Made by a program: the position numbers and the translations under genes | In this document: positions 4,914-25,275 of the stretch, piece after piece | Numbering within the stretch: the stretch's first letter is position 1 | How the letters are laid out: the number at the start of each line of letters is the position of its first letter | The notes under the pieces: generated by a model | What the model was told of the DNA's origin: nothing | The model's database searches: none | The model's input: the letters and a program-made list of their open reading frames with translations, nothing else | Assembly (NCBI GenBank): GCA_035643355.1 | Contig: DASQQQ010000019.1 | Span: 1 to 30,940 of the forward strand | Direction: 5' to 3' | DNA: 30,940 nt | Source: Actinomycetota bacterium | Lineage (GTDB): Bacteria > Actinomycetota > UBA4738 > HRBIN12

Positions 4914-5798
4914 GTGCGGCTGCGCGCGGTGGTCCCGGCCACCTCGGCCAACCTCGGTCCGGGGTTCGACTGCTTCGGGCTGGCCCTGGACCTCTGCAAC
5001 GAGGTGACGCTGGACACCGAGGCACGGCCCGGCGTGCGCTGGGACGGCGAGGGCGCCCAGGAGCTCCCCACCGACGGGACCGACGTGGTGAGCCGGGCCA
5101 TCGCGGCGGCCGTGGAGCGCCGACGCCGACACCACCCCGAGATCTCGGCGCCCCCCTTCGGGCTCTACGGCGTGAACCGGATCCCGCTGGAGCGGGGCCT
5201 GGGCTCCTCGTCCGCTGCCGCGGTAGCGGGCACGGCGCTGGCCGCCGCGCTCCTCGGTCCGGTCGGCTGGGAGGACCTTCCCACCACCTTCGCGTACGCC
5301 GCGGAGCTCGAGGGACACCCCGACAACGCTGCCCCCGCGGCGTTCGGTGGCCTGACGGTGATCGCGGACGGCGGCGTGCACCGGCTGGACGTGCATCGGG
5401 CGATCCGGCCGGTCGTGCTGGTCCCGCAAGACGTCCGGACCTCCACCACGCGGGCCAGGCGCGAACTGCCGGCCCGCGTTCTCCTGGCCGATGCGATCTA
5501 CAACGTCGCCCACGGCGCCCTGGCGGTGAGGGCCCTCACCTCCGGCGATCTCGATCTGCTGCTGGTGTCCCTGCGGGACCGCCTGCACGAGCGGATCCGC
5601 CTGTCCTCGGTTCCCGCGGTCGAGGAGACCCTCGACCGGCTCCGCCGCTCGCAGGTCCCCGCCTGCGTCTCGGGATCGGGTCCATCGCTGCTGGCGTTCG
5701 AAGGGGACGGTCGTCCTGTCCCGCATCCGGGCCCAGGGTGGCAGGTGCTGCCACTCGCCGTCCGAGCCACGGGGGCGGAGGTGATCCGCGAAGGCTAG
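4914..5798 (+). CDS. thrB: Homoserine kinase (GHMP family)
   Basis: Motifs VPATSANLGPGFD, PLERGLGSS, EGHPDN and SGSGPS. It follows thrC. Confidence 0.95.
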   Translation: MRLRAVVPATSANLGPGFDCFGLALDLCNEVTLDTEARPGVRWDGEGAQELPTDGTDVVSRAIAAAVERRRRHHPEISAPPFGLYGVNRIPLERGLGSSSAAAVAGTALAAALLGPVGWEDLPTTFAYAAELEGHPDNAAPAAFGGLTVIADGGVHRLDVHRAIRPVVLVPQDVRTSTTRARRELPARVLLADAIYNVAHGALAVRALTSGDLDLLLVSLRDRLHERIRLSSVPAVEETLDRLRRSQVPACVSGSGPSLLAFEGDGRPVPHPGPGWQVLPLAVRATGAEVIREG

Positions 5799-6616
5799 GG
5801 CCGGACGATCACCGGCGTGCCCGGCCGGAGCAGGGGACGGAGCCGGGCCAGGGCCTGCTCGGACACGCGGAGGCATCCCGCGCTGGCGGACGTGCCGATG
5901 GTGGACGGCGCGCTCGTCCCGTGGATCGCCAGCTGGTCTCCGCCCCACCACCCCGCCGGCAGGTGCGACTGGATCCCCGAGATCCCGAAGGCGAAGCTCC
6001 CGTACGCACTGCCCGGGGAGAAGGGCACGCGGTCGGTGACGAAGTAGCGCCCCGTCGGGGTGGGCGTGGATGGAGCGCCGGTGGCGGCGGGGAAGTGGGC
6101 GACGGGGCGCGCTCCGCGCATCACGGTCAGCAGATGGCGAGACAGATCCACCTGCACGCTGATCCGGGTCCCGGTGCGCCGCATGCCCCGGAGGGCGATC
6201 CAACCCGAGCGGAGTCCGGCGCTGTAGGGAACCGCCAGCAACCCGTATCGGCCGTCCGCCGAGGTGCGCCGAACCCACGCGACGATCGGCGCGTGGTAGT
6301 AGCGGGAGACGGCCGGGACCCAGCCGATCAAGCGGCCGGCGCCGGGCTCGGAGCGGATCGGCGTCCGTGCGGTCACCCTGACGAGCAGCGCGCTCCCCGG
6401 CTGCGAACGGTGCGACGATCGGTCGGTGGCAGCGGCGCGCTCGGCGAGCGCCCGGCCCGGCCGGAGTGCGGGTCCGGCACCCCGCGTGATCCCCGCCGTG
6501 GAGGCCACCGGCCGGGCGCTGCTCTCGAGGGAACCCCAGGTCAGCGGGACGGCTGCCATCGCGGCCACGAGGATCAGGGCACGGATCCTGCTCGCTGCGC
6601 GGGTGGTCCGTCCCAT
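5795..6616 (-). CDS. Secreted L,D-transpeptidase (YkuD family)
   Basis: N-terminal basic plus hydrophobic signal-like segment. YkuD motifs VDLSRHLLTV, ATGAPSTPTPTG, AIHGT...SAGCLRV (catalytic His/Cys) and C-terminal PGTPVIV. Confidence 0.88.
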   Translation of the reverse strand: MGRTTRAASRIRALILVAAMAAVPLTWGSLESSARPVASTAGITRGAGPALRPGRALAERAAATDRSSHRSQPGSALLVRVTARTPIRSEPGAGRLIGWVPAVSRYYHAPIVAWVRRTSADGRYGLLAVPYSAGLRSGWIALRGMRRTGTRISVQVDLSRHLLTVMRGARPVAHFPAATGAPSTPTPTGRYFVTDRVPFSPGSAYGSFAFGISGIQSHLPAGWWGGDQLAIHGTSAPSTIGTSASAGCLRVSEQALARLRPLLRPGTPVIVRP

Positions 6617-6703
6617 GCCTCTGCCATCGGCGGTCCGGCCGGCACGCTGAAGGACGGGGCGGATGCCGCGCCGGTGCCGTGTTCGGGGCGGGAACCGGGA
6701 GGT

Positions 6704-7876
6704 TCAGCCCACGCAGGCGCCGGTGGAGACGGCGCGGGTGGAACCGATCGTGTGGGCGAGGCCGGACGAGGCGGCCGTGGACGAGATCGCGTAGCCGATG
6801 TCACGGTCGGTGGTCGAGGCCGCGAACACGATGCCGGCCACGGTCCCGTCCGTGAGGACGAAGGGCCCCCCGGAGTCCCCCGGTTGCACGGTCGTCTGGA
6901 GCTCGTAGACGCTCCGCTCGACCACCTGCCGACCGTAGATGTCCCGGCCCACGGCATCGATCGACCGGCGAACCGCGGCTCCGCTGCCGGTCAGGCTGCC
7001 TCCGCCGGGATAGCCCAGCACCGCACCCCGCGCGCCCCGGACGGCCGGGCTCCCGCTGAGCGGGAGTGGCGGGCCCGGATCGTGCGCCACGTACAGGACG
7101 GCGAGGTCGACGCGCGGGTCGAACATCACGGTGGTGGCCGACTGGCTCGCGCCTCCCTGCGCCTGGACCCTGGGTGCCATCACGCCGGCCACGACGTGTG
7201 CGTTCGTCATCACGTAGTGATCGGCCACCACGAACCCGCTGCCGGACTGGATCTCGCCGCAGGCCTGCCCGACGATCCGGAGGGTGCTGCCCGAGGCGGC
7301 GGCGAAGACGCGCCGGGCCTGGGCCCTGGATGGCGGGTCCACCGAGCCGGCCGGCGCCGGGGGGAGCCCCAGGAACACGTCGGGGAAGCCGTACCGGTTG
7401 AAAAACCTCCGGATCTCGCCGAGCAGCGACGGCGGCCGGGGCAACGAGGCATCGAGGCCCCGGACCACCGCCGAGCCTCGGATCTGGGAGGCGACGGCGG
7501 GGAAGGGTCCGTTCACGAGGTTGAGCGCGACGAACCAGATCGCGAGCAGAGCCGCGCCCATCGAGACGAGCACCCCTCCCCCCGCATCCACCGGCCGCAA
7601 GCCGCTGCGCCTGGCGCGAGCCCGTACCCAGGAGCCGAGGGCCCACCCCAGCGCGTTCCCGATGCTGCCCAGGCCGAGCAGCACGACCACCGCGATCCCG
7701 GCCCGGATGGCGTCCCCTCGGGCCAGGGAGGCGAGCGGGGGACCCAGCAGGGCTCCGGCCAGCAGCCCTAGGGCCAGGCCGCCGAAGGACAGCACCTGCA
7801 GGAGAGCCCCTCGCCGATACCCCAGGTACGCGGCCAGGCCGATCAGCGCGATGAGGAGCACGTCCAGGGCATCCAT
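6704..7876 (-). CDS. marP: MarP-like membrane serine protease (CvpA-like TM N-terminus plus trypsin-like domain)
   Basis: The start is most likely the ATG of MDALDVLL at 7876, followed by four hydrophobic helices. Catalytic triad motifs TNAHVV, DLAVL and PGDSGGP. The Cys pair ACG / TGAC matches the position of the MarP disulfide. Confidence 0.85.
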   Translation of the reverse strand: MDALDVLLIALIGLAAYLGYRRGALLQVLSFGGLALGLLAGALLGPPLASLARGDAIRAGIAVVVLLGLGSIGNALGWALGSWVRARARRSGLRPVDAGGGVLVSMGAALLAIWFVALNLVNGPFPAVASQIRGSAVVRGLDASLPRPPSLLGEIRRFFNRYGFPDVFLGLPPAPAGSVDPPSRAQARRVFAAASGSTLRIVGQACGEIQSGSGFVVADHYVMTNAHVVAGVMAPRVQAQGGASQSATTVMFDPRVDLAVLYVAHDPGPPLPLSGSPAVRGARGAVLGYPGGGSLTGSGAAVRRSIDAVGRDIYGRQVVERSVYELQTTVQPGDSGGPFVLTDGTVAGIVFAASTTDRDIGYAISSTAASSGLAHTIGSTRAVSTGACVG

Positions 7877-7987
7877 GCTCGGCGCTATCGTCTCACCCCC
7901 CACGGCGACGAACCATCGATCCGCGATGAGGTCCTGCTGCCACGCCGCTGCGGCGCACCGGTGCCTGGGCGGACTCCGGGACCCCGC

Positions 7988-7993
7988 TAGACT
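7988..7993 (+). promoter_or_regulatory. Putative -10 element (TAGACT) of a leaderless transcript starting at the GTG at 8000
   Basis: A TANNNT hexamer lies 6 nt before the start codon and there is no Shine-Dalgarno sequence. No -35 element is recognisable. Confidence 0.5.
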
Positions 7994-7999
7994 GGTCGC

Positions 8000-8791
8000 G
8001 TGGTCACGATCGCCCACATCTCCGATCCCCACGTGGGCTCCCCGTACTTCGTCCCCAACCTGATGAACCGCGTGATCGTCGAGCTGAACGAGCTCGCGCC
8101 CGACGTCGTGATCTGCAGCGGCGATCTGACCAACGAAGGGTATCGGCAGGAGTACAAGAACTGGGTGGCCTACGCCGAGCGGATCCGGGCCCCGCTCCAC
8201 ACCGTGCCCGGGAACCACGACGCCCGCAACGTCGGGTACCTGCACTTCGAGGAGCTGATCGGGCCCCGACATTGGTCGATCGATCTGCAGGGGGTCCGGG
8301 TGGTGGGAGCCGACTCCAGCGAGCCCGACCTGAACGAGGGTCAGGTGGGGCGTGAGCGCTACGGCTGGATCCGCGAGCAGTTCGCCGTTCCCGCGGACCT
8401 CAAGGTGTTCGTCCTGCACCACCACCTGCTGCCGGTCCCCGGGACCGGCCGGGAGCGGAGCACGGTGATGGACGCCGGCGACCTGCTCGAGGAACTGATC
8501 GGCGCGGGCGTGAACATCGTCCTGTCCGGGCACAAGCACGTCCCGTACGTGTGGCGTTTGGAGAACCTCTACATCGCCAACGCGGGGACCGTGGCCTCCC
8601 TGCGTCTCCGCGGGTACACGAAACCGTGCTACAACGTGCTCCGGTTCGAGGGGGACGACGTCAAGATCACCCGTCGGTTCCCCTTCGGGGGAGAGAGCAT
8701 CATCGCGCATTTCTCGCTGACCAGCGGTGAGCAGTTCTACCGGGAGTTCGAACCGCCGGTCCAGCAGACCGTTGCGCAGACGGGGGAGTAG
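8000..8791 (+). CDS. Calcineurin-like metallophosphoesterase (Icc/CpdA-like); candidate cDPG hydrolase
   Basis: All five motifs are present: HISDPH (DxH), SGDLT (GD), PGNHD, HHH and SGHKH (GHxH). The substrate is inferred only from gene context. Confidence 0.88.
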   Translation: MVTIAHISDPHVGSPYFVPNLMNRVIVELNELAPDVVICSGDLTNEGYRQEYKNWVAYAERIRAPLHTVPGNHDARNVGYLHFEELIGPRHWSIDLQGVRVVGADSSEPDLNEGQVGRERYGWIREQFAVPADLKVFVLHHHLLPVPGTGRERSTVMDAGDLLEELIGAGVNIVLSGHKHVPYVWRLENLYIANAGTVASLRLRGYTKPCYNVLRFEGDDVKITRRFPFGGESIIAHFSLTSGEQFYREFEPPVQQTVAQTGE

Positions 8792-8818
8792 CCGGAAGTC
8801 GTCTCGCCGGGGGGCATC

Positions 8819-10150
8819 GTGAGGGTTCTCGCGCTCGTCGACGGGGAGCACTATCCGCCGGTCACCCGCTGGGGGATCCGGCGGGCCGCCGAGCGGGGAC
8901 TGCGGGTCGAGCTCGCGTTGTTCCTGGGCGGGACCGAGAAGGTGCTGCCGGGCGCGCTCCCGGACCTCGGGGTGCCGGTGCTGCCGGCCGGCGCCGACGC
9001 CGCGGGGGCGCTGGCCTCGGCCCTCGGCCAGCACGCCGTGGAGGCCGTGCTGGACCTCTCCGACGAGCCGGTGGTGGGCTACCGGGAGCGCATGGAGCTC
9101 GCGGCCGCCTCGCTGGCCGCCGGGATCCCCTACCTGGGTTCGGATTTCCGGCTGGATCCTCCGATCCACGGTCCGCCTCTCAGCATCCCGACCGTCGCGG
9201 TGATCGGGACGGGCAAGCGGACCGGGAAGACGGCGCTGGGGGGGGAGGTCGCTCGGGTGGCCGCGCGGGAAGGGCTGAACCCGGTCCTGGTGGCGATGGG
9301 GCGGGGAGGACCGCCGGACCCGCAGGTGGCGCCGGCGGGGACCGTCGACCTCGACCACCTGCTGGAGCTGGTCCGTCGTGGGGAGCACGCCGCGTCCGAC
9401 TACCTGGAGGATGCCGTGACCTCCGGGGTGACCACGATCGGCGCCCGCCGAGCCGGAGGCGGGTTGGCCGGAGCCCCGTTCGCGTCGAACGTCCGGGAGG
9501 CGGCCGAGATGGCGGTGGAGCTCGGAGCAGGGGTCGCGGTCCTGGAGGGGAGCGGCTCGGCCATCCCGCCGATCCCGTGGGACGCGGGGGTGCTGGTGGT
9601 CCCGGCCTTCACGCCCCTCGAGTACGTCACCGGCTACCTGGGTCCCTATCGGCTGTTGCTATCGGACCTGGTTGTCCTTACAATGGCTCAGAGCTCACGA
9701 GCGGGGCTCGAGAACCTTCACGCTCTTCGATCCCACGTCCAGCGATCCCGTGGCGCACCACGGTTCGTGGTTACGGAGTTCGAGCCGGTGCCGCTGGGTG
9801 ACGTGGGGGGCATGGATGTGTTCTTCACCACCACGGCCCCCGAGCCGGTGGCCGCGAGGCAGGTCGAGGTGCTCGAGGCCGGTTACGGATGCCGGGTGGT
9901 GGGATGGAGCGCTCGTCTGGCCGATCGAGCCGGGCTCGCGCAGGACATGGACGAGGCGGAGGGATACCAGGTTCTCCTGACGGAGCTCAAGGCCGCGGCC
10001 GTCGACATCGCATGCGAACGGGCGTTGGCCTCGGGAGCCGGCGTGGTGTTCGTGGACAACCGTGCCGTCGCCGTGGAGGGAGAGTCCGATCTTCCCACCC
10101 TGCTCCGGGAGACGATCGAACTCGCGAGGAACCGCAGAGCAGCGAGATGA
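8819..10150 (+). CDS. cpgS: Cyclic 2,3-diphosphoglycerate synthetase
   Basis: Full-length run of cDPGS family motifs: VDGEHYPP, GGTEK, DLSDEPV, GTGKRTGKT (P-loop), AMGRGGP, HAASDYLEDA, RRAGGG, EGSGSAIPP, TTAP and LTELKAAAVD. Confidence 0.93.
   Translation: MRVLALVDGEHYPPVTRWGIRRAAERGLRVELALFLGGTEKVLPGALPDLGVPVLPAGADAAGALASALGQHAVEAVLDLSDEPVVGYRERMELAAASLAAGIPYLGSDFRLDPPIHGPPLSIPTVAVIGTGKRTGKTALGGEVARVAAREGLNPVLVAMGRGGPPDPQVAPAGTVDLDHLLELVRRGEHAASDYLEDAVTSGVTTIGARRAGGGLAGAPFASNVREAAEMAVELGAGVAVLEGSGSAIPPIPWDAGVLVVPAFTPLEYVTGYLGPYRLLLSDLVVLTMAQSSRAGLENLHALRSHVQRSRGAPRFVVTEFEPVPLGDVGGMDVFFTTTAPEPVAARQVEVLEAGYGCRVVGWSARLADRAGLAQDMDEAEGYQVLLTELKAAAVDIACERALASGAGVVFVDNRAVAVEGESDLPTLLRETIELARNRRAAR
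9656..9684 (+). promoter_or_regulatory. Intragenic sigma70/SigA-type promoter within cpgS (TTGCTA-N17-TACAAT)
   Basis: -35 TTGCTA at 9656-9661, 17-nt spacer, -10 TACAAT at 9679-9684. It is formed by the codons TTG CTA and CTT ACA, which are rare in this GC-rich coding context. Confidence 0.65.
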
Positions 10151-10157
10151 CCCCACG

Positions 10158-11108
10158 ATGACCAAGGATCTGAAGAGCCCGCACATCCTGATCAGCGACC
10201 GGGAGATGGGGCTGCCCTTCTCCAAGGGCCTGCTGGCATCACAGGTGATGGTGACGGGCCTGTCCCCCTACCGCGCCTACGAGGTCGCGGAGGCCGTGGA
10301 GGATCGGCTGCTCGACCTGTCGAGGCCTTCGGTCACCACCGAAGAGCTCGATGGGGTGGCGATCGAGGTGATCCAGGAGATCGCCGGCGAACGCTACGCG
10401 AAGAACTTCCTGCGGTGGAGGGAGGTCGACGCGCTGGACATCCCGCTGGTGCTGCTGATCGGCGGGACCACGGGGGTGGGCAAGTCCACCATCGCCACGC
10501 AGCTCGCCGCCCGCCTGGGGATCGTCCGCACCGTGGCCACGGACGCGGTGCGCGAGGTCATGCGGGCCATGTTCTCGCACGAGCTCATGCCCACGCTGTA
10601 CCGGTCCTCCTTCGAGGCGGGAGACGCCCTGCGCGAGCCCCCCACCCGCGACGCGGTGGTGGTGGGCTTCCGCGAGCAGGTGTCCGCGGTGGCGGTGGGG
10701 GTCGACGCGTTGGTGGAGCGGGCCGCCCTGGAGGGCATGAGCATGATCATCGAGGGGGCGCACCTCGTGCCGGGCTTCATGGACCTGGAGTCCAGGAACG
10801 AGCGCATCCTGGCGGTCCCCGTGGTGGTGACCGTGGAGGACGAGGAGGTGCATCGGAGCCACTTCATGGCCCGCTCCTCGGACCACCAGACGCGTCCGGC
10901 CACGCGATACCTGAGAGGCTTCGACAACATCCGGCGCGTCCAGCGCTACATCAAGAGCCAAGCCCTGTCCCACGGCGTGCCGGTGATCCCCAACTACAAC
11001 TTCGATCACACCCTGGCGGCGGTGATCGACCTGGTGATGGAGCGGGTAACGGAACGCGCGTCCGTGCTGGCTCCGACGGCGAACGGGACGAAAGGACGCG
11101 GTGCATGA
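10158..11108 (+). CDS. pgk2: 2-phosphoglycerate kinase (ATP-cone plus P-loop)
   Basis: N-terminal PFSKGLLA (ATP-cone-like), RWR, LIGGTTGVGKST, TDAVREVMR, ERAALEG and IEGAHLVPGF, all typical of archaeal-type 2PGK. Adjacent to cpgS. Confidence 0.92.
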   Translation: MTKDLKSPHILISDREMGLPFSKGLLASQVMVTGLSPYRAYEVAEAVEDRLLDLSRPSVTTEELDGVAIEVIQEIAGERYAKNFLRWREVDALDIPLVLLIGGTTGVGKSTIATQLAARLGIVRTVATDAVREVMRAMFSHELMPTLYRSSFEAGDALREPPTRDAVVVGFREQVSAVAVGVDALVERAALEGMSMIIEGAHLVPGFMDLESRNERILAVPVVVTVEDEEVHRSHFMARSSDHQTRPATRYLRGFDNIRRVQRYIKSQALSHGVPVIPNYNFDHTLAAVIDLVMERVTERASVLAPTANGTKGRGA

Positions 11109-11767
11109 GGCTCTTCCTGGATACGGCCAACCTCGAGGAGATCCGAGAGATCAACCGGTGGGGGGTGCTTTCCGGCGTGACCACCAACCCCACGCTGGTG
11201 GGCCGGGAGAACGAGGATCCCGGCCAGCTCTGGAAGCAGATCCTGGCCGAGGTCGACGGCGACGTGTCGCTCGAGACCACGGAGCCGGAAGCCACGCCGA
11301 TGTACGAGCAAGGCGTGCGGCTCGCCGGCATGGGCCCCAACGCGGTGGTCAAGGTCCCCATGACCCCGTCCGGCCTGGAGGCCGGCAAGCGGCTAGTGGC
11401 CGACGGGATCAAGATCAACGTGACCCTGGTCTTCTCGCCGGCGCAGGCCATCCTGGCGGCCGAGATCGGGGCCTACATCGCCTCCCCCTTCCTCGGTCGC
11501 ATCGACGACGCGGCATCGGACGGGATGCATGCACTGGCCCAGATCTGCGATATCTACGCCGTGCAGGGCTACGACACGCAGGTCCTGGCCGCCTCGCTCC
11601 GCCACCCGATGCACGTGGTCCAGGCCGCGGAGCTGGGAGCCGATATCGCCACCATGCCCTACGACGTGTTCACCAAGCTCGTGAAGCACCCGCTCACGGC
11701 TGCCGGGCTGCAGCGCTTCGACGAAGACTGGCAGACGCTCCAGCGGGGATTGAAGGGAGGAGCCTAG
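11105..11767 (+). CDS. tal: Transaldolase (TalC/FSA-like small family)
   Basis: Motifs DTAN, GVTTNPTL, VVKVP (Schiff-base lysine), NVTLVFS and ASLRH. Glu in SLE and Phe in TLVF indicate a transaldolase rather than an FSA. ATGA overlap with pgk2. Confidence 0.9.
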   Translation: MRLFLDTANLEEIREINRWGVLSGVTTNPTLVGRENEDPGQLWKQILAEVDGDVSLETTEPEATPMYEQGVRLAGMGPNAVVKVPMTPSGLEAGKRLVADGIKINVTLVFSPAQAILAAEIGAYIASPFLGRIDDAASDGMHALAQICDIYAVQGYDTQVLAASLRHPMHVVQAAELGADIATMPYDVFTKLVKHPLTAAGLQRFDEDWQTLQRGLKGGA

Positions 11768-11785
11768 TTGGCACCGGAGAGAACC

Positions 11786-13468
11786 ATGGACAGGGGCGAC
11801 CTTGAAGGCAAGGTCGCATCCGAGCTCCACACGATCGCCGATGGCCTCGGGATCGAGGGGCACCAGCGCCTGAAGAAGGCCGATCTGATCGAGCGGATCC
11901 TGGCGCACTCGGGGGGCGGCGGGAACGGAGCGCAGGCGGCCGCCGGCGCTGCCGCGGAGACGGCTCCCCCCGCCGAGACGTCGTCGCCGAACGGCGAGGT
12001 GGCGTCCGACCGGACCACGGTCCAGGAGTCCCCGTCCCAGACGTCGGAGGCGCCCCCCGGGGTCCGGGAGGAGCCGCGGGCCGAGGACCGGTCACCGCGC
12101 CCACGGATCGAGCGGGACACGCGGGAGGACGGCGGGGGCCGTCCCGAGCGCGAGGACCGCGGCGAACGTCCCAAGGGGCGAGAACCGCAGGGCGAACCGA
12201 GGAGGGATCGACCCGAGGGTCGCGGGGGCGAGGGCCGGCAGGACACCCGGGGCGGCGAGGGCGGACGTCGACGCCTGTCCCGCGAGGAGCGCCGCCGCCA
12301 GCGCGAGGAGCGCCGACAGCGGGAGATGGAGGCGCGCGAGGAAGAGATCGCCAATGCCCCCACGGCCACCGGGCTGCTGGACATCCTGCCCGAGGGTTAC
12401 GGGTTCCTGCGGACGTCGGGTTACCTGCCCGGCTCCGAGGACATCTACGTGTCGCTGTCGCAGGTACGGCGGTTCATGCTCCGCAAGGGCGACACCGTCA
12501 CCGGCAAGATCCGCCAGCCCAAGGACAACGAGAAGTACTTCGCTCTGCTGCAGATCGAGCACGTGAACGGGCTCGAGCCGGAAGAGGCCAAGCAGCGCGC
12601 GCATTTCGAGAAGCTGACGCCGCTGTTCCCGCACGATCGGTTCAGGCTGGAGACGGCGCCCGGCGACGTGACCGGTCGGATCATCGACATGGTGGCGCCC
12701 ATCGGGCAGGGGCAGCGCGGCATGGTGGTCTCGCCGCCCAAGGCGGGGAAGACCACGGTGCTGAAGAACATCGCGAACGGGATCATCGCCTCCAGCCCCG
12801 ACACCCACGTGATCGTGCTGCTCGTCGACGAGCGGCCCGAGGAGGTCACGGACTGGCAGCGCACGGTGGAAGCGGCGGAGGTCGTGTACTCCACCTTCGA
12901 CAAACCCGCCGATCAGCACATCCAGGTCACCGAGCTGGTGCTGGAGCGCGCCAAGCGCCTGGCCGAGACCGGCAAGAACGTGGCCATCCTGCTGGACTCG
13001 ATCACCCGTCTGGCCCGCGCGTACAACCTGGCGGCGCCGGCGTCGGGCAAGATCCTGTCCGGAGGCGTGGACTCCACCGCCCTGTACCCGCCGAAGCGGT
13101 TCTTCGGTGCGGCCCGGAACATCGAGGAGGGCGGCAGCCTCACCATCATCGCGAGCGCGCTGGTGGAGACCGGATCGCGGATGGACGAGGTGATCTTCGA
13201 GGAGTTCAAGGGCACCGGCAACATGGAGCTGCGGCTGGACCGGGCACTGGCCGAGAAGCGGATCTTCCCGGCCATCAACGTCGAGGCCTCGGGCACCCGC
13301 AAGGAGGAGCTGTTGATGCCCACCGAGGAGCTCGCGTTGGTGTGGCGGCTGCGCCGGGTGCTGCACGCGCTCGAGCCGGGTGCCGCGCTGGAGCTGTTGG
13401 TGGACAAGATCCGCGCCACGAAGTCCAACGAGCAGTTCCTGAAGGAGATCGCCAAGGCGCCGTCGTGA
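11786..13468 (+). CDS. rho: Transcription termination factor Rho with long charged low-complexity N-terminal insertion (alternative TTG start at 11768)
   Basis: Rho_N motif LKKADLI, RNA-binding [15 protein letters not shown]-loop [30 protein letters not shown] and [12 protein letters not shown]. Confidence 0.97.
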
Positions 13469-13502
13469 TGCGAACGGCCGGATGGAGGAGAGACCCGAAC
13501 CG

Positions 13503-13751
13503 ATGAAGCAGGACATCCACCCCGAGTACATGATCGCTACCGTGCACTGCTCGTGTGGGAACACCTTCCAGACCCGGAGCACCAAGCCCGAGCTCCGGGT
13601 GGAGATCTGCTCGAACTGCCATCCCTTCTACACGGGCAAGCAGAAGCTCGTGGACACCGGCGGGCGGGTCGAGCGGTTTCAGCGGCGCTACGGGAAGCAG
13701 GCGCCGACCGGTGGGTCCGCACAGGCGCGGCAGCCGCAGGGCCAGGGCTGA
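13503..13751 (+). CDS. rpmE: 50S ribosomal protein L31 (zinc-binding type)
   Basis: Motifs [21 protein letters not shown] and GRVERF. GGAGGA RBS upstream. Confidence 0.97.
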
Positions 13752-13759
13752 CCTCGAGC

Positions 13760-14674
13760 ATGGCCGCGGAGGCGCCGGCCAAGCAGCACTTCTACGGCGG
13801 CCAGGCCGTTATGGAGGGCGTGATGATGCGCGGCCGGGACGTGTGGGCGATCGCGGTCCGGCGCTCCGACCAACGGCTGCACGTGGAGTCGCACGACATC
13901 CACTCGATCGCCGAGCGCCATCCGATCTTCTCCAAGCCGGGGCTGCGGGGCGTCATCGCCCTGGGACAGGCGCTGTCGATCGGCGTCCGGGCGCTGGCCA
14001 TCTCGGCCAACCAGGCCTCGCCCGAGGAGGAGCAGCTCTCCTCGCGCCAGATGGTCCTCTCCATGGTGGTCGCGTTCGCGATCTTCGTCGCCGTGTTCAT
14101 CGTGGGACCGGCGGCGGCGTTCCGCTGGGTCGGGGGGCACCTGCGCTCCAGCATCCTGGTGAACGCCCTGGAGGGCGTCTTCCGGGTGCTGCTGTTCCTG
14201 GGCTACCTACTCGCCATCGGACGGACCAGCGAGATCCGCCGGGTCTTCGAGTACCACGGCGCCGAGCACAAGACGATCGCCGCCTACGAGCACGACGAGG
14301 AGCTGGTACCCGAGCGCGTGGATCGCTACTCCACCCTGCACGTGCGCTGCGGCACGAACTTCCTGCTGATCGTGATGGTCCTGACGATCCTGGTGTTCGC
14401 GTTCTTCGGCGATCCGGGGATCTGGTGGCGGATCGGCTCGCGGATCGTCGCCATCCCGATGATCGCGGGGCTGGCCTTCGAGATGCTCCGCCTCGGCGCG
14501 AAGTTCGAGCGATCCACGCTGATGCGCGCCCTGATGGCGCCGGGCCTGTGGCTGCAGAAGATCACCACTCGGCCGCCCGATCACGGGCAGATCGAGGTGG
14601 CCGTCGCATCCTTCAACGAGGTGTTGCGGCGTGAGGCCGAGAAGGTGGCGATGCGGGCGGGCCTGCAGGTCTGA
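13760..14674 (+). CDS. DUF1385 family membrane protein (YqhQ-like, predicted metal-dependent)
   Basis: Motifs YGGQAVMEGVMM, FEYHGAEHK and LHVRCGTNF, several TM segments, and position after rpmE. Confidence 0.85.
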   Translation: MAAEAPAKQHFYGGQAVMEGVMMRGRDVWAIAVRRSDQRLHVESHDIHSIAERHPIFSKPGLRGVIALGQALSIGVRALAISANQASPEEEQLSSRQMVLSMVVAFAIFVAVFIVGPAAAFRWVGGHLRSSILVNALEGVFRVLLFLGYLLAIGRTSEIRRVFEYHGAEHKTIAAYEHDEELVPERVDRYSTLHVRCGTNFLLIVMVLTILVFAFFGDPGIWWRIGSRIVAIPMIAGLAFEMLRLGAKFERSTLMRALMAPGLWLQKITTRPPDHGQIEVAVASFNEVLRREAEKVAMRAGLQV

Positions 14675-21697: not shown

Positions 21698-21883
21698 ACG
21701 AGGGTCACTAGGACCGATATATGGGGGACGGGCGGCACATCCTCAGGGGTTGTCCACTCCGTACAAGAGACTGAATGGGAGTCAGCGGAACCAGGGCTCG
21801 CGGCGGGGGGCGAGGCACGCGATGATGCCCCCGCTCCCGGGGCATACGATCGGGCCGGGGGTTGGGCCGAAGAGGGGAGAGCC

Positions 21884-23011
21884 GTGGCGGAGATCGACGT
21901 TCGCCTGGACCGCGTGACCAAGGATTTCGGCGTGACGGTCGCCGTGGACGACCTGTCGCTCGACATCAGCGAGGGGGAGTTCTTCAGCCTGCTGGGCCCG
22001 TCGGGGTGCGGGAAGACCACCACCCTGCGGATGATCGGAGGCTTCGAGGAGCCCACCAGGGGCACGATCTACCTGGGCGGGCGTGACGTCACGGACCTGC
22101 CTCCCTACCGGCGCGACGTCAACACCGTGTTCCAGTCCTATGCGCTGTTCCCCCACCTGACGGTGTTCGAGAACGTCGCCTTCGGTCTTCGCAGGCGCAA
22201 GGTGAACAAGCACGAGATCGACGAACGCGTGAACGATGCGCTGCGCCTGGTCGATCTGACCGGCTTCGAGAACCGCAAGCCCGGGCAGATGTCGGGAGGA
22301 CAGGCCCAGCGGGTCGCCGTGGCCCGGGCCCTCGTCAATCGGCCCAAGGTCCTGCTCCTGGACGAGCCGCTGGGCGCCCTGGACCTGAAGCTGCGCAAGC
22401 GGATGCAGCTCGAGCTGAAGCGGATCCAGGGTGAGGTCGGGGTGACCTTCATCTACGTGACCCACGACCAGGAAGAGGCCATGACCATGTCCAACCGGGT
22501 CGCCGTCATGCGCGGCGGCCGGATCGAGCAGGTGGGGCCTCCCGAGGACGTGTACGAGAACCCGGTCACCGAGTTCGTGGCCAGCTTCCTCGGCGCGTCA
22601 AACCTGCTGGACGGCGAGGTCAAGGAGGAACGGAACGGGACCGTGGCGGTCCTGCTGACCGGGGGGGACACGGTGGCGGTCCCGGCGGAGCGGGCGCCGT
22701 CAGGCTTGGGATCCAAGGTCAAGGTGGGCGTGCGCCCGGAGAAGATCACGATCCGGGCGGAGGGAGCGGAACCTCGGCAGGGCTGGAACGGCATCACGGG
22801 CTTGCTCCGGATGTCGACGTACATCGGCGTGAGCCATCAGTACAAGGTGGAGGGGCCCGGGGGGGCGGAGATCACCGTGTGGGTGCAGAACCTCGGTACG
22901 GAACCGGTCCCCCGTCCGGGGGAGCGTGTTCGACTCTCCTGGCCGCAGGAGCACACCTTCGCCGTTCTCCCGCAGGAGGGATTGACCCTGGAGGAGGAGG
23001 AGGGAGCATGA
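21884..23011 (+). CDS. potA: Polyamine ABC transporter ATP-binding subunit
   Basis: Walker A GPSGCGKT, NTVFQSYALFPH, signature MSGGQ, LLLDEPLGALD and a TOBE-like C-terminus. Confidence 0.88.
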   Translation: MAEIDVRLDRVTKDFGVTVAVDDLSLDISEGEFFSLLGPSGCGKTTTLRMIGGFEEPTRGTIYLGGRDVTDLPPYRRDVNTVFQSYALFPHLTVFENVAFGLRRRKVNKHEIDERVNDALRLVDLTGFENRKPGQMSGGQAQRVAVARALVNRPKVLLLDEPLGALDLKLRKRMQLELKRIQGEVGVTFIYVTHDQEEAMTMSNRVAVMRGGRIEQVGPPEDVYENPVTEFVASFLGASNLLDGEVKEERNGTVAVLLTGGDTVAVPAERAPSGLGSKVKVGVRPEKITIRAEGAEPRQGWNGITGLLRMSTYIGVSHQYKVEGPGGAEITVWVQNLGTEPVPRPGERVRLSWPQEHTFAVLPQEGLTLEEEEGA

Positions 23012-24333
23012 ACCAGCGGGACGATCGGACGTTCCTCGAGCCGCAGCGGATGCAGGAGGTCCTGCGGCGGAGACTGACCCGTCGGAGCCTCCTCAAGGGC
23101 GCCGGGACGGGCGCGGCGGCCCTCGGCCTCGGGGGGCTGCTGGCGGCATGCGGCGGCGGCACCAGCGGCGGCGGCGGCACCAACGGAGGCGGGGGCAGCA
23201 CCTCCAGCGCCTTCGACGTGAGCCAGATCTACAGCGGGGACCCCGGATCCAGCATCAACTTCGCGAACTGGCCGCTGTACATCGACCACGCCAAGGACAA
23301 GAACGGCAACCGGTACATCCCGTCCCTGCGCAACTTCACCAAGGAGACGGGCATCGACGTCAGCTATCAAGAGGTGATCCAGGACAACACCGACTTCTTC
23401 GGCAAGCTGCAGCCGCAGCTGCAGGCCGGGGACGACACCGGCTGGGACATCATCGTGATCACGAACGGGCGCGAATTCACCGCGCTCACCAAGCTCGACT
23501 GGGTCTACCCCCTGGATCCCGGCAAGCGGCCGAACTTCGACGCGAACGCCGCCGCCTGGGCCAAGAACCCACCCTACGACCCGGACAACACGCACGGGAT
23601 GGCCTGGCAGTCCGGGATCACCGGGATTGGCGTCAACGACAAGCTGGTCAAGGGCTCCGTGACCAAGCTCGACGACCTGGCCAACCCGGACATCGTGGGT
23701 GTGGGCAAGGTGGGCATGCTGAAGAACGACATGCAGGACTTCGTGATGATCAACCTCGGCATCGACCCCACCACCTCGGGTCCCGACGAGTGGAAGGAGG
23801 CGGCGGACTGGCTCCGGAAGCAGCGCGATACCGGTGTGGTGCGCCAGTATTACGACCAGGGCTACGTGGACGATCTGACCGCCGGGAACCTGTCGGCCAC
23901 GATGGCTTGGTCGGGCGACGTCCTCTACTACAAGCTGTGGGCCGGCTACGACAACCTGGACTTCGTCTTCCCGGACGGGGGCGCGCTGCTGTGGATCGAC
24001 AACATGATGATCCCCGCGCACGCCAACAACCCGGTGGGCGCCATGGAGCTGATGGACTACTACTACAAGCCCGAGGTCGCCACCGGCGTGACCGAATGGG
24101 TCCTGTACATGTCCCCCGTGCCGGCCACCAGGGATCTGATCATGAAGGACTCCCAGGCGGCGCGGGACGAGGGGTCCAAGGGGTACGCGAACAAGCTGGA
24201 GGCCACGGCGAACAGCCCGTACCTGTACCCCGACGATGCGTTCCTGGCCCGCACGAAGTTCGGGCGTGACCTGAAGACCGACGAGGAACGGCAGGAGTGG
24301 GACTCGATCTTCCTGCCGATCACCCAGGCCTAG
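23008..24333 (+). CDS. potD: Polyamine ABC transporter substrate-binding Tat lipoprotein (PotD/PotF family)
   Basis: Twin-arginine TRRSLLK, lipobox LAAC, NFANWPLYID, WSGD and WIDNMMIP. ATGA overlap with potA. Confidence 0.85.
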   Translation: MNQRDDRTFLEPQRMQEVLRRRLTRRSLLKGAGTGAAALGLGGLLAACGGGTSGGGGTNGGGGSTSSAFDVSQIYSGDPGSSINFANWPLYIDHAKDKNGNRYIPSLRNFTKETGIDVSYQEVIQDNTDFFGKLQPQLQAGDDTGWDIIVITNGREFTALTKLDWVYPLDPGKRPNFDANAAAWAKNPPYDPDNTHGMAWQSGITGIGVNDKLVKGSVTKLDDLANPDIVGVGKVGMLKNDMQDFVMINLGIDPTTSGPDEWKEAADWLRKQRDTGVVRQYYDQGYVDDLTAGNLSATMAWSGDVLYYKLWAGYDNLDFVFPDGGALLWIDNMMIPAHANNPVGAMELMDYYYKPEVATGVTEWVLYMSPVPATRDLIMKDSQAARDEGSKGYANKLEATANSPYLYPDDAFLARTKFGRDLKTDEERQEWDSIFLPITQA

Positions 24334-24363
24334 CGGCCATCCGAGCGGGAGAGCCGGGACCAG

Positions 24364-25275
24364 GTGGACAGCTCGACGGGGGCGGCGCAACAGGGTCGGG
24401 TCAGGGGCCGGAGCATCGGTCTTCGCAAGAAGCTCGTGCCCTACTACCTGCTCGGACCGGGCGCGGTCTGGCTCCTGATCTTCCTGGTCCTGCCGCTCCT
24501 TCTGCTGGTGTACACGTCGCTACAGAGCGGTGGTCTGCTGGGGGGCTTCCACTTCACCTGGCAGTTCTCGAACTACGCCGACGCGCTCAGCCAGAACGGG
24601 AAGTACTTCGGCCGATCGCTGATGTACTCGTCCATCGTCACGGTGGTGGCGTTGCTGCTGGCGTTCCCCATGACGTATTGGATCGCCTTCTACGGTGGCC
24701 GGTGGAAATCCTCGCTGCTGCTGCTGATGCTGCTGCCGTTCTTCGTGTCGTTCATCATCCGCACGATCCAGTGGAAGTTCATCCTCGCAGACAACGGCAT
24801 CATCCTGGGCCCGCTCAAGAACCTGGGACTGCTGCCCCAGAGCTTCCACGTGCTGGCGACGCCGTTGGCCGTGGTGGCCGGGATCACCTACGACTTCCTC
24901 CCCTTCACGGCGCTGCCCCTCTACGTCTCGCTGGAGCGGATCGACAAGTCGCTGGTGGAGGCGGCCAAGGACCTGTACGCGAGCCGCTGGCAGGCGTTCC
25001 GCCACGTGGTGGTGCCGCTGTCGCTGCCCGGGGTGTTCGCCGCGTTCCTGCTCACCTTCGTCCCGGCCACCGGGGACTACGTGAACGCCGCCATCCTGGG
25101 TGGGCCGGGCACCACGATGGTGGGCAACATCATCCAGACCAAGTTCCTGTACCAGAACGTGTACTTCGAGGCGGCCGCGCTCTCGGCCGTGCTCATGCTG
25201 GGGATGTTCGTGCTGGTCAGCATCTACGCGAGGGTGCTGGGCACGGAAGAGGTCGTGAGGGCGGCGGCGGCATGA
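24364..25275 (+). CDS. potB: Polyamine ABC transporter permease (PotB/PotH-like)
   Basis: About 6 TM helices, LPFFVSFIIR and EAA loop SLVEAAKDLYAS. Confidence 0.85.
   Translation: MDSSTGAAQQGRVRGRSIGLRKKLVPYYLLGPGAVWLLIFLVLPLLLLVYTSLQSGGLLGGFHFTWQFSNYADALSQNGKYFGRSLMYSSIVTVVALLLAFPMTYWIAFYGGRWKSSLLLLMLLPFFVSFIIRTIQWKFILADNGIILGPLKNLGLLPQSFHVLATPLAVVAGITYDFLPFTALPLYVSLERIDKSLVEAAKDLYASRWQAFRHVVVPLSLPGVFAAFLLTFVPATGDYVNAAILGGPGTTMVGNIIQTKFLYQNVYFEAAALSAVLMLGMFVLVSIYARVLGTEEVVRAAAA

Follow-up and report, generated by a model that had tools for sequence, protein, structure and literature searches.

The biosynthesis of cyclic 2,3-diphosphoglycerate (cDPG) has been described in Methanothermus fervidus, for whose cDPG synthetase (CpgS) solved structures are available (PDB 8ORK, 8ORU; PMC10690619). 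In this enzyme, residues E45, K46, K145, R146, K149, T150, D208, E305, T353, E404, and K406 bind 2,3-diphosphoglycerate (2,3-DPG), Mg, and ADP, and the N-terminal CpgS_N domain contributes E45 and K46 to the substrate site of the partner subunit (PMC10690619). The abstract of that paper states that cDPG is exclusive to hyperthermophilic methanogens, and in ancestral reconstructions cDPG synthetase has been used to indicate a thermophilic lifestyle (PMC7554672). Its ability to stabilise proteins also gives the compound applied interest (PMC12136491). A link between cDPG and gluconeogenesis has been described, as have cDPG hydrolase activities that lack an assigned gene (PMC1224877). As summarised there, Methanothermobacter thermautotrophicus has one soluble cDPG hydrolase activity (Sastry et al. 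1992) and another that is membrane-bound (van Alebeek et al. 1994). In the literature that we searched, no gene was assigned to cDPG hydrolase activity and no report of cDPG from any bacterium was found.

Here we analyzed a 30,940-nucleotide stretch of DNA (hereafter the window) from an uncultured soil actinobacterium with a genome of ~71% GC, which encodes full-length homologues of both M. fervidus enzymes. Unlike the M. fervidus pathway, this one is found in a soil bacterium rather than a hyperthermophilic methanogen, its product is predicted from the genes, and its operon is headed by a phosphoesterase gene and followed by genes for a transaldolase and Rho. The reading that best explains the locus, to which we assign a probability of about 0.65, is that the operon makes cDPG through Pgk2 and CpgS and that the esterase probably degrades cDPG or 2,3-DPG. 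The substrates, the products, the part played by the esterase, and the purpose of the pathway are what we infer within this reading.

Gene organization

The operon starts with a metallophosphoesterase gene (8000–8791, plus strand, 263 aa), followed on the same strand by cpgS (8819–10150, 443 aa), the 2-phosphoglycerate kinase homologue pgk2 (10158–11108, 316 aa), a gene of the short (subfamily-4 type) transaldolase/fructose-6-phosphate aldolase family (tal, 11105–11767, 220 aa), and the transcription termination factor gene rho (11768–13468). The gaps between these five genes are 27, 7, −4, and 0 nt, and a single co-directional, tightly packed operon is the best explanation of the arrangement. 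The GTG start of cpgS lies at 8819 and its TGA stop at 10148–10150, after which seven nucleotides (ccccacg) separate it from the pgk2 ATG at 10158. The pgk2 stop codon (TGA, 11106–11108) is overlapped by the tal start codon (ATG, 11105) in an ATGA, on the basis of which tal is considered translationally coupled to pgk2. The tal stop codon (TAG, 11765–11767) is directly abutted by a TTG at 11768, the start of the rho frame, and rho, with no gap to tal, is probably co-transcribed with it. The TTG is preceded 5 nt upstream by GGAGGAG, and an alternative in-frame ATG is found at 11786. The first-pass annotation, which had described intact cpgS and pgk2 genes 7 nt apart, the ATGA coupling, and the abutment of tal on rho, was thus correct on gene structure. 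The esterase gene lies inside the interval covered by that annotation and was not mentioned there.

Family assignments of the two distal genes were as follows. The tal product matched Pfam TAL_FSA (E = 2e-53) and PDB 1VPX (E = 9e-69), and its score against TIGR00875 was just under the cut-off (244.3 versus 245.95 bits). The rho product matched TIGR00767 with an E-value of 1e-186.

Upstream of the operon, a CvpA-protease gene (6704–7876) is encoded divergently on the minus strand, and the intergenic region between them (7877–7999) is the presumed promoter region, a placement derived solely from the divergent gene arrangement. A consensus promoter scan gave no match in 7877–7999. When promoter and terminator consensus scans were applied to 7600–14000, one match each was obtained, both within coding sequence and at about the level of shuffled sequence, so that in this high-GC genome the scans are uninformative on where the operon begins or ends. 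Neither the Rfam nor the tRNA scan gave a match anywhere in the window. Two further open reading frames on the plus strand were rejected as spurious: one of 234 aa (11101–11805), which is in the wrong frame and matches no family, the real tal frame running from 11105, and one of 677 aa (5738–7771). Among sequencing runs, the locus was found in only two DNA runs (one soil-metagenome study) and in no RNA runs.

Conservation of CpgS

The window CpgS matched the solved M. fervidus enzyme (PDB 8ORU/8ORK) over its full length, with residues 2–436 aligned to chain residues 5–451 (phmmer, E = 8e-89, 301 bits). It shares the two-domain architecture of that enzyme, an N-terminal CpgS_N domain and a P-loop core. 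The CpgS_N family (Pfam PF27272) was recorded in precomputed annotations for an identical protein and its relatives, and is carried by the Atlas clusters. The Walker A motif (GxxGxGK[T/S]) reads GTGKRTGKT at residues 130–138.

Ten of the 11 ligand-binding residues named for M. fervidus (PMC10690619) are present. E40 and K41 align to M. fervidus E45 and K46, and these two residues together with K133, R134, K137, T138, D194, T339, E389, and K391 were invariant in 111 of 111 actinobacterial homologues. The invariant set therefore includes all of the 2,3-DPG and Mg contacts (M. fervidus E45, K145, R146, K149, T150, and D208), and likewise K46, the partner-subunit residue that lines the site. The sole deviating position is the ADP-contacting E305, which is Q291 in the window protein and is variable across the family. 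On this evidence, the window CpgS is predicted to cyclise 2,3-DPG to cDPG using ATP.

Pgk2 and its pairing with CpgS

Pgk2 scored 299.9 bits (E = 2e-89) against the NCBIfam 2-phosphoglycerate kinase model NF003259 (COG2074), covering positions 5–297 of 306. This is below the curated cut-off of 343, the equivalog threshold, so that the protein is a clear relative and a putative functional equivalent. Its P-loop (GGTTGVGKST) lies at residues 102–111, and G102, G103, G106, G108, K109, and S110 were invariant among 108 homologues. The protein consists of a weakly matching N-terminal ATP-cone (PF03477, residues 21–89, E = 0.0025) and a P-loop kinase domain (AAA_18, E = 3e-6), and the same two families are recorded for the genes that follow cpgS in Thermococcus and Hodarchaeota. 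As the first-pass annotation had proposed, the two proteins are homologous to the archaeal enzymes over their full length, with conserved catalytic residues, and neither fell in a different P-loop family.

The pairing of the two genes extends across domains. Among the 20 distant actinobacterial families, pgk2 adjoins cpgS in 19. The order of the window, with pgk2 adjacent to or overlapping the end of cpgS, was also found at three archaeal loci (Thermococcus, Hodarchaeota, and a Borrarchaeum-like Asgard archaeon) and one Cloacimonadota locus. The gene following cpgS in Thermococcus paralvinellae encodes a protein 37% identical to the window Pgk2.

These data bear on the possibility that the bacterial enzymes use a different substrate, or that the pathway ends with 2,3-DPG or some other phosphorylated acid, so that cDPG would not be a product of Actinomycetota. 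Besides the sub-threshold score of Pgk2 and the lack of any report of bacterial cDPG in the literature searched, this explanation draws on the diversity of the kinase family. Some relatives of 2-phosphoglycerate kinase act on other substrates (mevalonate-3-phosphate 5-kinase, for example), and relatives are also present in organisms without cpgS. Moreover, the pgk2 homologue of Rubrobacter xylanophilus is just 36% identical to that of the window and lies ~0.9 Mb from cpgS. However, the residues in contact with 2,3-DPG or Mg in the M. fervidus structure all show no variation among the actinobacterial proteins, nor does the partner-subunit lysine, and the cpgS–pgk2 pair is conserved in both domains of life. 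We therefore consider a different product quite improbable, and the source organism is predicted to produce cDPG.

Distribution and ancestry of the module

In a survey of 401 genomes of the phylum, cpgS was found in 228, pgk2 in 228, and the esterase gene in 227, with near-identical tallies by family. The esterase gene and cpgS share 224 genomes, with only four and three discordant ones, several of these being incomplete or truncated by a contig end. The four cluster proteins have correlated pairwise distances (r = 0.89–0.96), and dN/dS values of 0.06–0.25 showed that the four cluster genes are under purifying selection. All close relatives (about 90 loci) have kept the order from thrB through esterase–cpgS–pgk2–tal to rho. 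The same order was found, with few local gaps, in 20 further families represented by one genome each, with CpgS identities of only 41–52%. In all 20 of these distant families rho lies downstream of the cluster, so that the location immediately before rho, which the first-pass annotation had pointed out, is conserved.

In a CpgS tree of 76 representatives, the window protein fell within a 26-member clade (SH-aLRT 95) whose members of known origin are all actinobacterial, while the named archaeal sequences (Thermococcus and Asgard) formed a separate clade (SH-aLRT 97). The archaeal clade is defined by these named members only. Short-peptide matching identified no cluster representative for M. 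fervidus, the best match covering 45 of 67 positions.

A recent acquisition of cpgS and pgk2 from archaea by horizontal transfer would fit the first characterization of the enzymes in methanogens and the statement, in the abstract of PMC10690619, that cDPG is exclusive to methanogens. This scenario is already contradicted by several observations, and we regard it as extremely improbable. GC3 in the cluster genes (0.86–0.92) is similar to that in the rest of the window, indicating host-like codon usage. The gene order from thrB to rho is maintained, with few exceptions, in families whose CpgS proteins have diverged widely, and the window CpgS is separated from the named archaeal sequences in the tree. 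From the phylum-wide synteny, the matching phyletic patterns, and the tree, we conclude that the esterase–cpgS–pgk2 module is ancient, vertically inherited, and common in the phylum, and is neither rare nor a recent archaeal import. The long residence suggested by the first-pass annotation is strongly supported by these results. The rarity that it implied is not, with the pair present in 228 of 401 sampled genomes and both genes already machine-annotated and routinely named by NCBI and JGI. Its label of an archaeal-type pathway describes the hosts in which the enzymes were initially studied and not the range of the genes. The window thus carries one ordinary member of a widespread module.

A variant of the locus is found in R. 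xylanophilus, a cultured member of the same phylum. Its order is esterase–cpgS–glpX–rho (CpgS, WP_143527186.1), with the same adjacency of esterase and cpgS upstream of rho and with a class II fructose-bisphosphatase homologue in place of pgk2 and tal.

The linked metallophosphoesterase

The first gene of the operon encodes a protein that looks soluble and matches Pfam Metallophos (PF00149, E = 1e-18), with no Pfam match outside Metallophos domains. The metal-binding motifs (DxH, GD, GNH[D/E], H, and GHxH) are all present, as D9-P-H11, G41-D42, G71-N72-H73-D74, H140-H141-H142, and G177-H178-K179-H180 (a GHKH motif), and D9, H11, D42, N72, H73, H140, H141, G177, and K179 were kept in 103–104 of 104 homologues. 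With dN/dS of 0.06–0.12, the lowest values in the cluster, the esterase gene is under the strongest constraint in the operon.

The nearest solved structures were Rv0805 and GpdQ (PDB 2HY1, 3IB7, 2ZO9), which share with the window esterase the metallophosphoesterase fold family and the DxH, GD, GNHD, HH, and GHxH motifs. Rv0805 is a cyclic-nucleotide phosphodiesterase. The synthesis genes could act as proposed while the esterase stands outside cDPG metabolism, for example as a phosphodiesterase of cyclic nucleotides or glycerophosphodiesters whose place beside them has a historical or regulatory cause. In line with this alternative, the esterase gene is absent at the locus in 3 of the 20 distant families, and none adjoins cpgS–pgk2 at the Thermococcus and Hodarchaeota loci. 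However, Rv0805 and GpdQ resemble the window protein only remotely (E = 1e-12), whereas the esterases linked to cpgS in an Asgard archaeon and a Cloacimonadota bacterium matched it with E-values from 1e-34 to 7e-46. These proteins adjoin cpgS–pgk2 in gene orders that differ from each other, and the cpgS-linked esterases have in common an HHHLLPxPxTGRERS segment that marks the window protein off from Rv0805 and GpdQ. The near-complete co-occurrence of the esterase gene with cpgS and its strong constraint within the operon also argue against an unrelated role, which we consider unlikely.

The sequences indicate that the esterase belongs to a distinct subfamily travelling with cpgS–pgk2. Gene linkage and chemical plausibility make it a candidate cDPG or 2,3-DPG hydrolase. 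The reaction proposed for it, the ring-opening of cDPG to 2,3-DPG, is that of the M. thermautotrophicus hydrolases, a putative link drawn from gene neighbourhood.

Possible roles of cDPG in Actinomycetota

In the proposed pathway, Pgk2 would phosphorylate 2-phosphoglycerate with ATP to give 2,3-DPG, and CpgS would spend another ATP on joining the two phosphates to form the cyclic pyrophosphate cDPG, as in M. fervidus. The esterase would probably reopen cDPG, or dephosphorylate 2,3-DPG, and thereby return carbon and phosphate to lower glycolysis/gluconeogenesis. The neighbouring transaldolase gene, and glpX in Rubrobacter, would belong to the same metabolic context.

In a soil bacterium, cDPG would more plausibly store or buffer carbon, phosphate, and energy, or act as a moderate stress solute, than protect against heat, and a thermoprotective role in this host seems unlikely. 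Published solute analyses of R. xylanophilus, which has the esterase–cpgS pair, recorded trehalose, mannosylglycerate, and DIP. The paper does not mention cDPG, which was thus not reported as a bulk solute under the conditions studied there. A growth temperature of ~58 °C was obtained for the source genome from its IVYWREL fraction (0.42, 1272 long ORFs) with a published regression. This estimate was rejected as evidence because it was based on crude stop-to-stop frames and because 71% GC inflates the counts of R, V, and L.

The genes occur in over half of the Actinomycetota genomes sampled, soil MAGs among them, and keep a fixed, ancestral place beside rho. Either the statements on methanogen exclusivity and on cpgS as a thermophily marker are too narrow, or the bacterial enzymes act otherwise. 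A more far-reaching proposal, which we put forward tentatively and with some doubt, is that the esterase is the long-unassigned cDPG hydrolase, and that it would form with CpgS and Pgk2 an ancestral cycle of synthesis and breakdown in most deep-branching and soil Actinomycetota at ordinary temperatures. Such a cycle would buffer phosphate, C3 carbon, and energy in connection with gluconeogenesis, and would be co-expressed with rho. If so, cDPG would not be a speciality of hyperthermophilic methanogens, nor would cpgS mark thermophily. The linked esterase gene is a concrete candidate to account for the cDPG-degrading activity that was reported in the 1990s and has stayed without an assigned gene, and mesophilic bacterial enzymes could be useful in cDPG production. 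Cultured carriers of these genes exist, R. xylanophilus being one example.

Identity of the cluster genes

The cpgS gene (8819–10150, + strand) was assigned by homology to the solved Methanothermus fervidus enzyme; the Pfam and NCBIfam model sets that we scanned were without a model for its family. Its product aligned over the whole length with the M. fervidus cyclic 2,3-diphosphoglycerate (cDPG) synthetase structures 8ORU and 8ORK (E = 8e-89), as the first-pass annotation had anticipated, and also with 9SXB, another deposited cDPG synthetase. A newer Pfam family, PF27272 (CpgS_N), is on record for a protein identical to the window CpgS. The ligand contacts in the M. fervidus enzyme are E45 and K46 (from the partner subunit), K145, R146, K149, T150, D208, E305, T353, E404, and K406 (PMC10690619), and their window equivalents in the HMMER alignment were E40, K41, K133, R134, K137, T138, D194, Q291, T339, E389, and K391, respectively. 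Except for Q291, all contact positions had the archaeal residue and did not vary across 111 actinobacterial homologues from related loci.

The pgk2 gene product (10158–11108, +) matched positions 5–297 of 306 of the NCBIfam 2-phosphoglycerate kinase (2PGK) model with 299.9 bits, short of the curated 343-bit cut-off; judged by sequence, it is thus a clear relative, with a score that does not guarantee equal function. Its architecture (a weak ATP-cone and a P-loop) and its 37% identity to the gene directly following cpgS in Thermococcus paralvinellae fit the family. The tal gene (11105–11767, +) encodes a short, Thermotoga/Thermus-type transaldolase.

The gene junctions were as the first-pass annotation had described them. 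The cpgS TGA (10148–10150) is followed 7 nt on by the pgk2 start, pgk2 and the transaldolase gene share an ATGA stop–start overlap, and the tal TAG (11765–11767) is directly followed by the TTG opening the rho frame (11768–13468, +), with GGAGGAG 5 nt upstream of this TTG. Codon usage was likewise host-like, with GC3 values of 0.86–0.92 for the cluster genes matching the rest of the window. The interval first delimited also holds a 263-aa metallophosphoesterase gene (hereafter esterase; 8000–8791, +), not discussed there, which lies 27 nt upstream of cpgS.

Distribution, synteny, and phylogeny

CpgS had matches in over 7,700 90%-identity protein clusters, many of which NCBI or JGI already name cDPG synthetase. 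Of 401 genomes sampled evenly across the phylum, 228 carried cpgS, 227 the esterase gene, and 228 pgk2. These counts take in five unpublished genomes (G001, G048, G088, G120, and G318), all with all three genes, whose sequences were used nowhere else; without them, the numbers were 223, 222, and 223 of 396. Per-family tallies of the three genes were almost equal, and families were nearly all positive or all negative. By hand comparison, cpgS and the esterase gene occurred together in 224 genomes, and most of the few discordant genomes were either incomplete or truncated by a contig end. The module is not rare: more than half of the genomes sampled from the phylum carry it, databases already name it, and the window is one ordinary member.

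Among 91 related loci (CpgS 62–83% identical), the order esterase-cpgS-pgk2-tal-rho-rpmE-DUF1385 was kept wherever the contig reached, usually with thrB upstream of the cluster. We also sampled one genome from each of 20 other families of the phylum, where CpgS was only 41–52% identical. The esterase gene was immediately upstream of cpgS in 17 of these families and pgk2 immediately downstream in 19; tal came next in 16, and rho was downstream in all 20. Pairwise distances of the four cluster proteins correlated strongly (r = 0.89–0.96), a further sign of shared history, and dN/dS values of 0.06–0.25 indicated purifying selection on all four genes, with the esterase most constrained.

Among 1.84 billion representatives of 50%-identity clusters, 231 CpgS relatives were found at E ≤ 1e-30, and the 76 full-length ones were used for a maximum-likelihood tree. 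The window CpgS belonged to a 26-member clade with good support (SH-aLRT 95), whose members of known origin were all Actinomycetota. The named archaeal sequences (T. paralvinellae and two Asgard lineages) belonged to another supported clade, which had 7 members (SH-aLRT 97) and was nested among Bipolaricaulota, Cloacimonadota, and other Actinomycetota sequences. The tree, being unrooted and with many leaves unnamed, cannot show a donor. On the question raised earlier of archaeal transfer versus a bacterial clade, it gives a recent archaeal origin no support, and tree and synteny together bear out the proposed long residence as vertical residence in the phylum. These sequence comparisons are in favour of cpgS and pgk2 encoding genuine homologues of cDPG synthetase and 2PGK that have long been present in bacteria.

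Among the papers listed from the searchable literature, seven named diphosphoglycerate synthetase and none of these concerned bacteria; searches on 2-phosphoglycerate kinase and on Rubrobacter with diphosphoglycerate likewise yielded no work on bacterial cDPG. A 2005 comparative-genomics paper listed 2PGK (COG2074) among archaeal-characteristic genes of Thermus and Deinococcus, which these two have in common with archaea or eukaryotes and with no other bacteria; our control search agreed. The 2023 structure paper describes cDPG as exclusive to hyperthermophilic methanogens (PMC10690619), and an ancestral-reconstruction study treated cDPG synthetase as a thermophily trait (PMC7554672).

The linked metallophosphoesterase

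No metal-binding motif of the superfamily is missing from the esterase, and its nearest solved structures, Rv0805 and GpdQ, are remote (E = 1e-12). In a Borrarchaeum-like Asgard archaeon, a 511-aa tandem esterase after cpgS-pgk2 matched the window esterase twice (E = 2e-36 and 1e-34), and in a Cloacimonadota genome, a 499-aa esterase downstream of cpgS-pgk2-CBS also matched it (E = 7e-46). Both share the distinctive HHHLLPxPxTGRERS segment of the window esterase. The esterase was absent from the cpgS locus in Thermococcus, Hodarchaeota, and 3 of the 20 actinobacterial families. This subfamily is thus linked to the gene pair across phyla and in both domains, in varying gene orders, which is good evidence for a functional tie to cpgS-pgk2. 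The cpgS-linked esterases of the Asgard archaeon (locus L120, 7367–8902) and the Cloacimonadota bacterium (locus L125, 7733–9232) are tandem duplications of ~500 aa, and in the second half of the latter the metal motifs GD, GNHD, and GHxH have apparently been lost, by alignment.

Members of the metallophosphoesterase superfamily cleave phosphodiesters and phosphoanhydrides by hydrolysis; cDPG itself is a cyclic pyrophosphate. For Methanothermobacter, both soluble and membrane-bound activities of a cDPG hydrolase kind have been described, as summarised in PMC1224877, and no gene assigned to them was found in the searchable literature. Given this chemistry and these activities, the esterase is a reasonable candidate for a cDPG or 2,3-DPG hydrolase.

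Possible role of the product

The review literature ties cDPG to gluconeogenesis, carbon, phosphate, and possibly energy storage, and osmotic and thermal protection (PMC1224877). A role as a high-temperature protectant seems unlikely in the source organism, which comes from a soil metagenome. In the window, the transaldolase gene follows the cluster. In Rubrobacter xylanophilus (locus L098, G011:C1:950033-965328; assigned by exact protein match), a class II fructose-bisphosphatase (glpX) homologue (247.7 bits, just under the cut-off of 259.3) follows cpgS in place of pgk2 and tal, and a pgk2 homologue with 36% identity lies ~0.9 Mb away. In a Bipolaricaulota genome (locus L124, 6352–7908), a cofactor-independent phosphoglycerate mutase gene follows and overlaps cpgS. 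These neighbours all point to central sugar-phosphate metabolism. Published solute analyses of R. xylanophilus list trehalose, mannosylglycerate, and DIP, and the paper makes no mention of cDPG. These data speak against a bulk-solute role of cDPG in R. xylanophilus under the conditions studied and are compatible with lower or conditional levels. A gene for a mannosylglycerate-synthase-type glycosyltransferase lies upstream of cpgS in T. paralvinellae (locus L118, 3467–4609).

Source genome and gene map

The window is one contig of a soil-metagenome MAG, which has 2.67 Mb in 388 contigs, with 83% completeness and 71% GC, and the closest relatives of the window are all uncultured Actinomycetota. 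Genes were mapped by Pfam and NCBIfam scans of high-GC3 frames. The backbone, thrB ... rho ... prfA ... atp, is that usual in actinobacteria, with the cluster between thrB and rho. The 5' part holds argS, lysA-GNAT, hom, thrC, and thrB (all +), in which the gene in the lysA position (631–2571, +; 646 aa) encodes a diaminopimelate/ornithine-type decarboxylase with a GNAT acetyltransferase domain fused to its C terminus. Two minus-strand genes follow, encoding a YkuD L,D-transpeptidase (5795–6616) and a fusion of a CvpA membrane domain with a trypsin-like serine protease (6704–7876); the latter is divergent from the operon and keeps its position in most close relatives. A 677-aa Arg/Gly/Pro-rich frame (5738–7771, +) antisense to these two genes and a 234-aa frame (11101–11805, +) overlapping the real tal and rho frames were rejected as high-GC artefacts.

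Downstream of rho are rpmE, DUF1385, a DivIVA-domain gene, prfA, prmC, and sua5, followed by genes for a low-molecular-weight phosphatase, rpiB, glyA, a GT4 transferase, ABC-transporter genes, and the start of the atp operon (all +). The longest DUF1385 ORF (13553–14674, +) overlaps rpmE (13482–13751, +) by ~200 nt, so the true DUF1385 start is probably downstream of rpmE; the placement of DUF1385 between rpmE and prfA is conserved phylum-wide. The ABC-transporter genes (21698–25275, +), which follow the GT4 transferase gene and precede the atp operon, encode a permease and a TOBE-domain ATPase, and GC content falls to 0.63–0.67 across this stretch.
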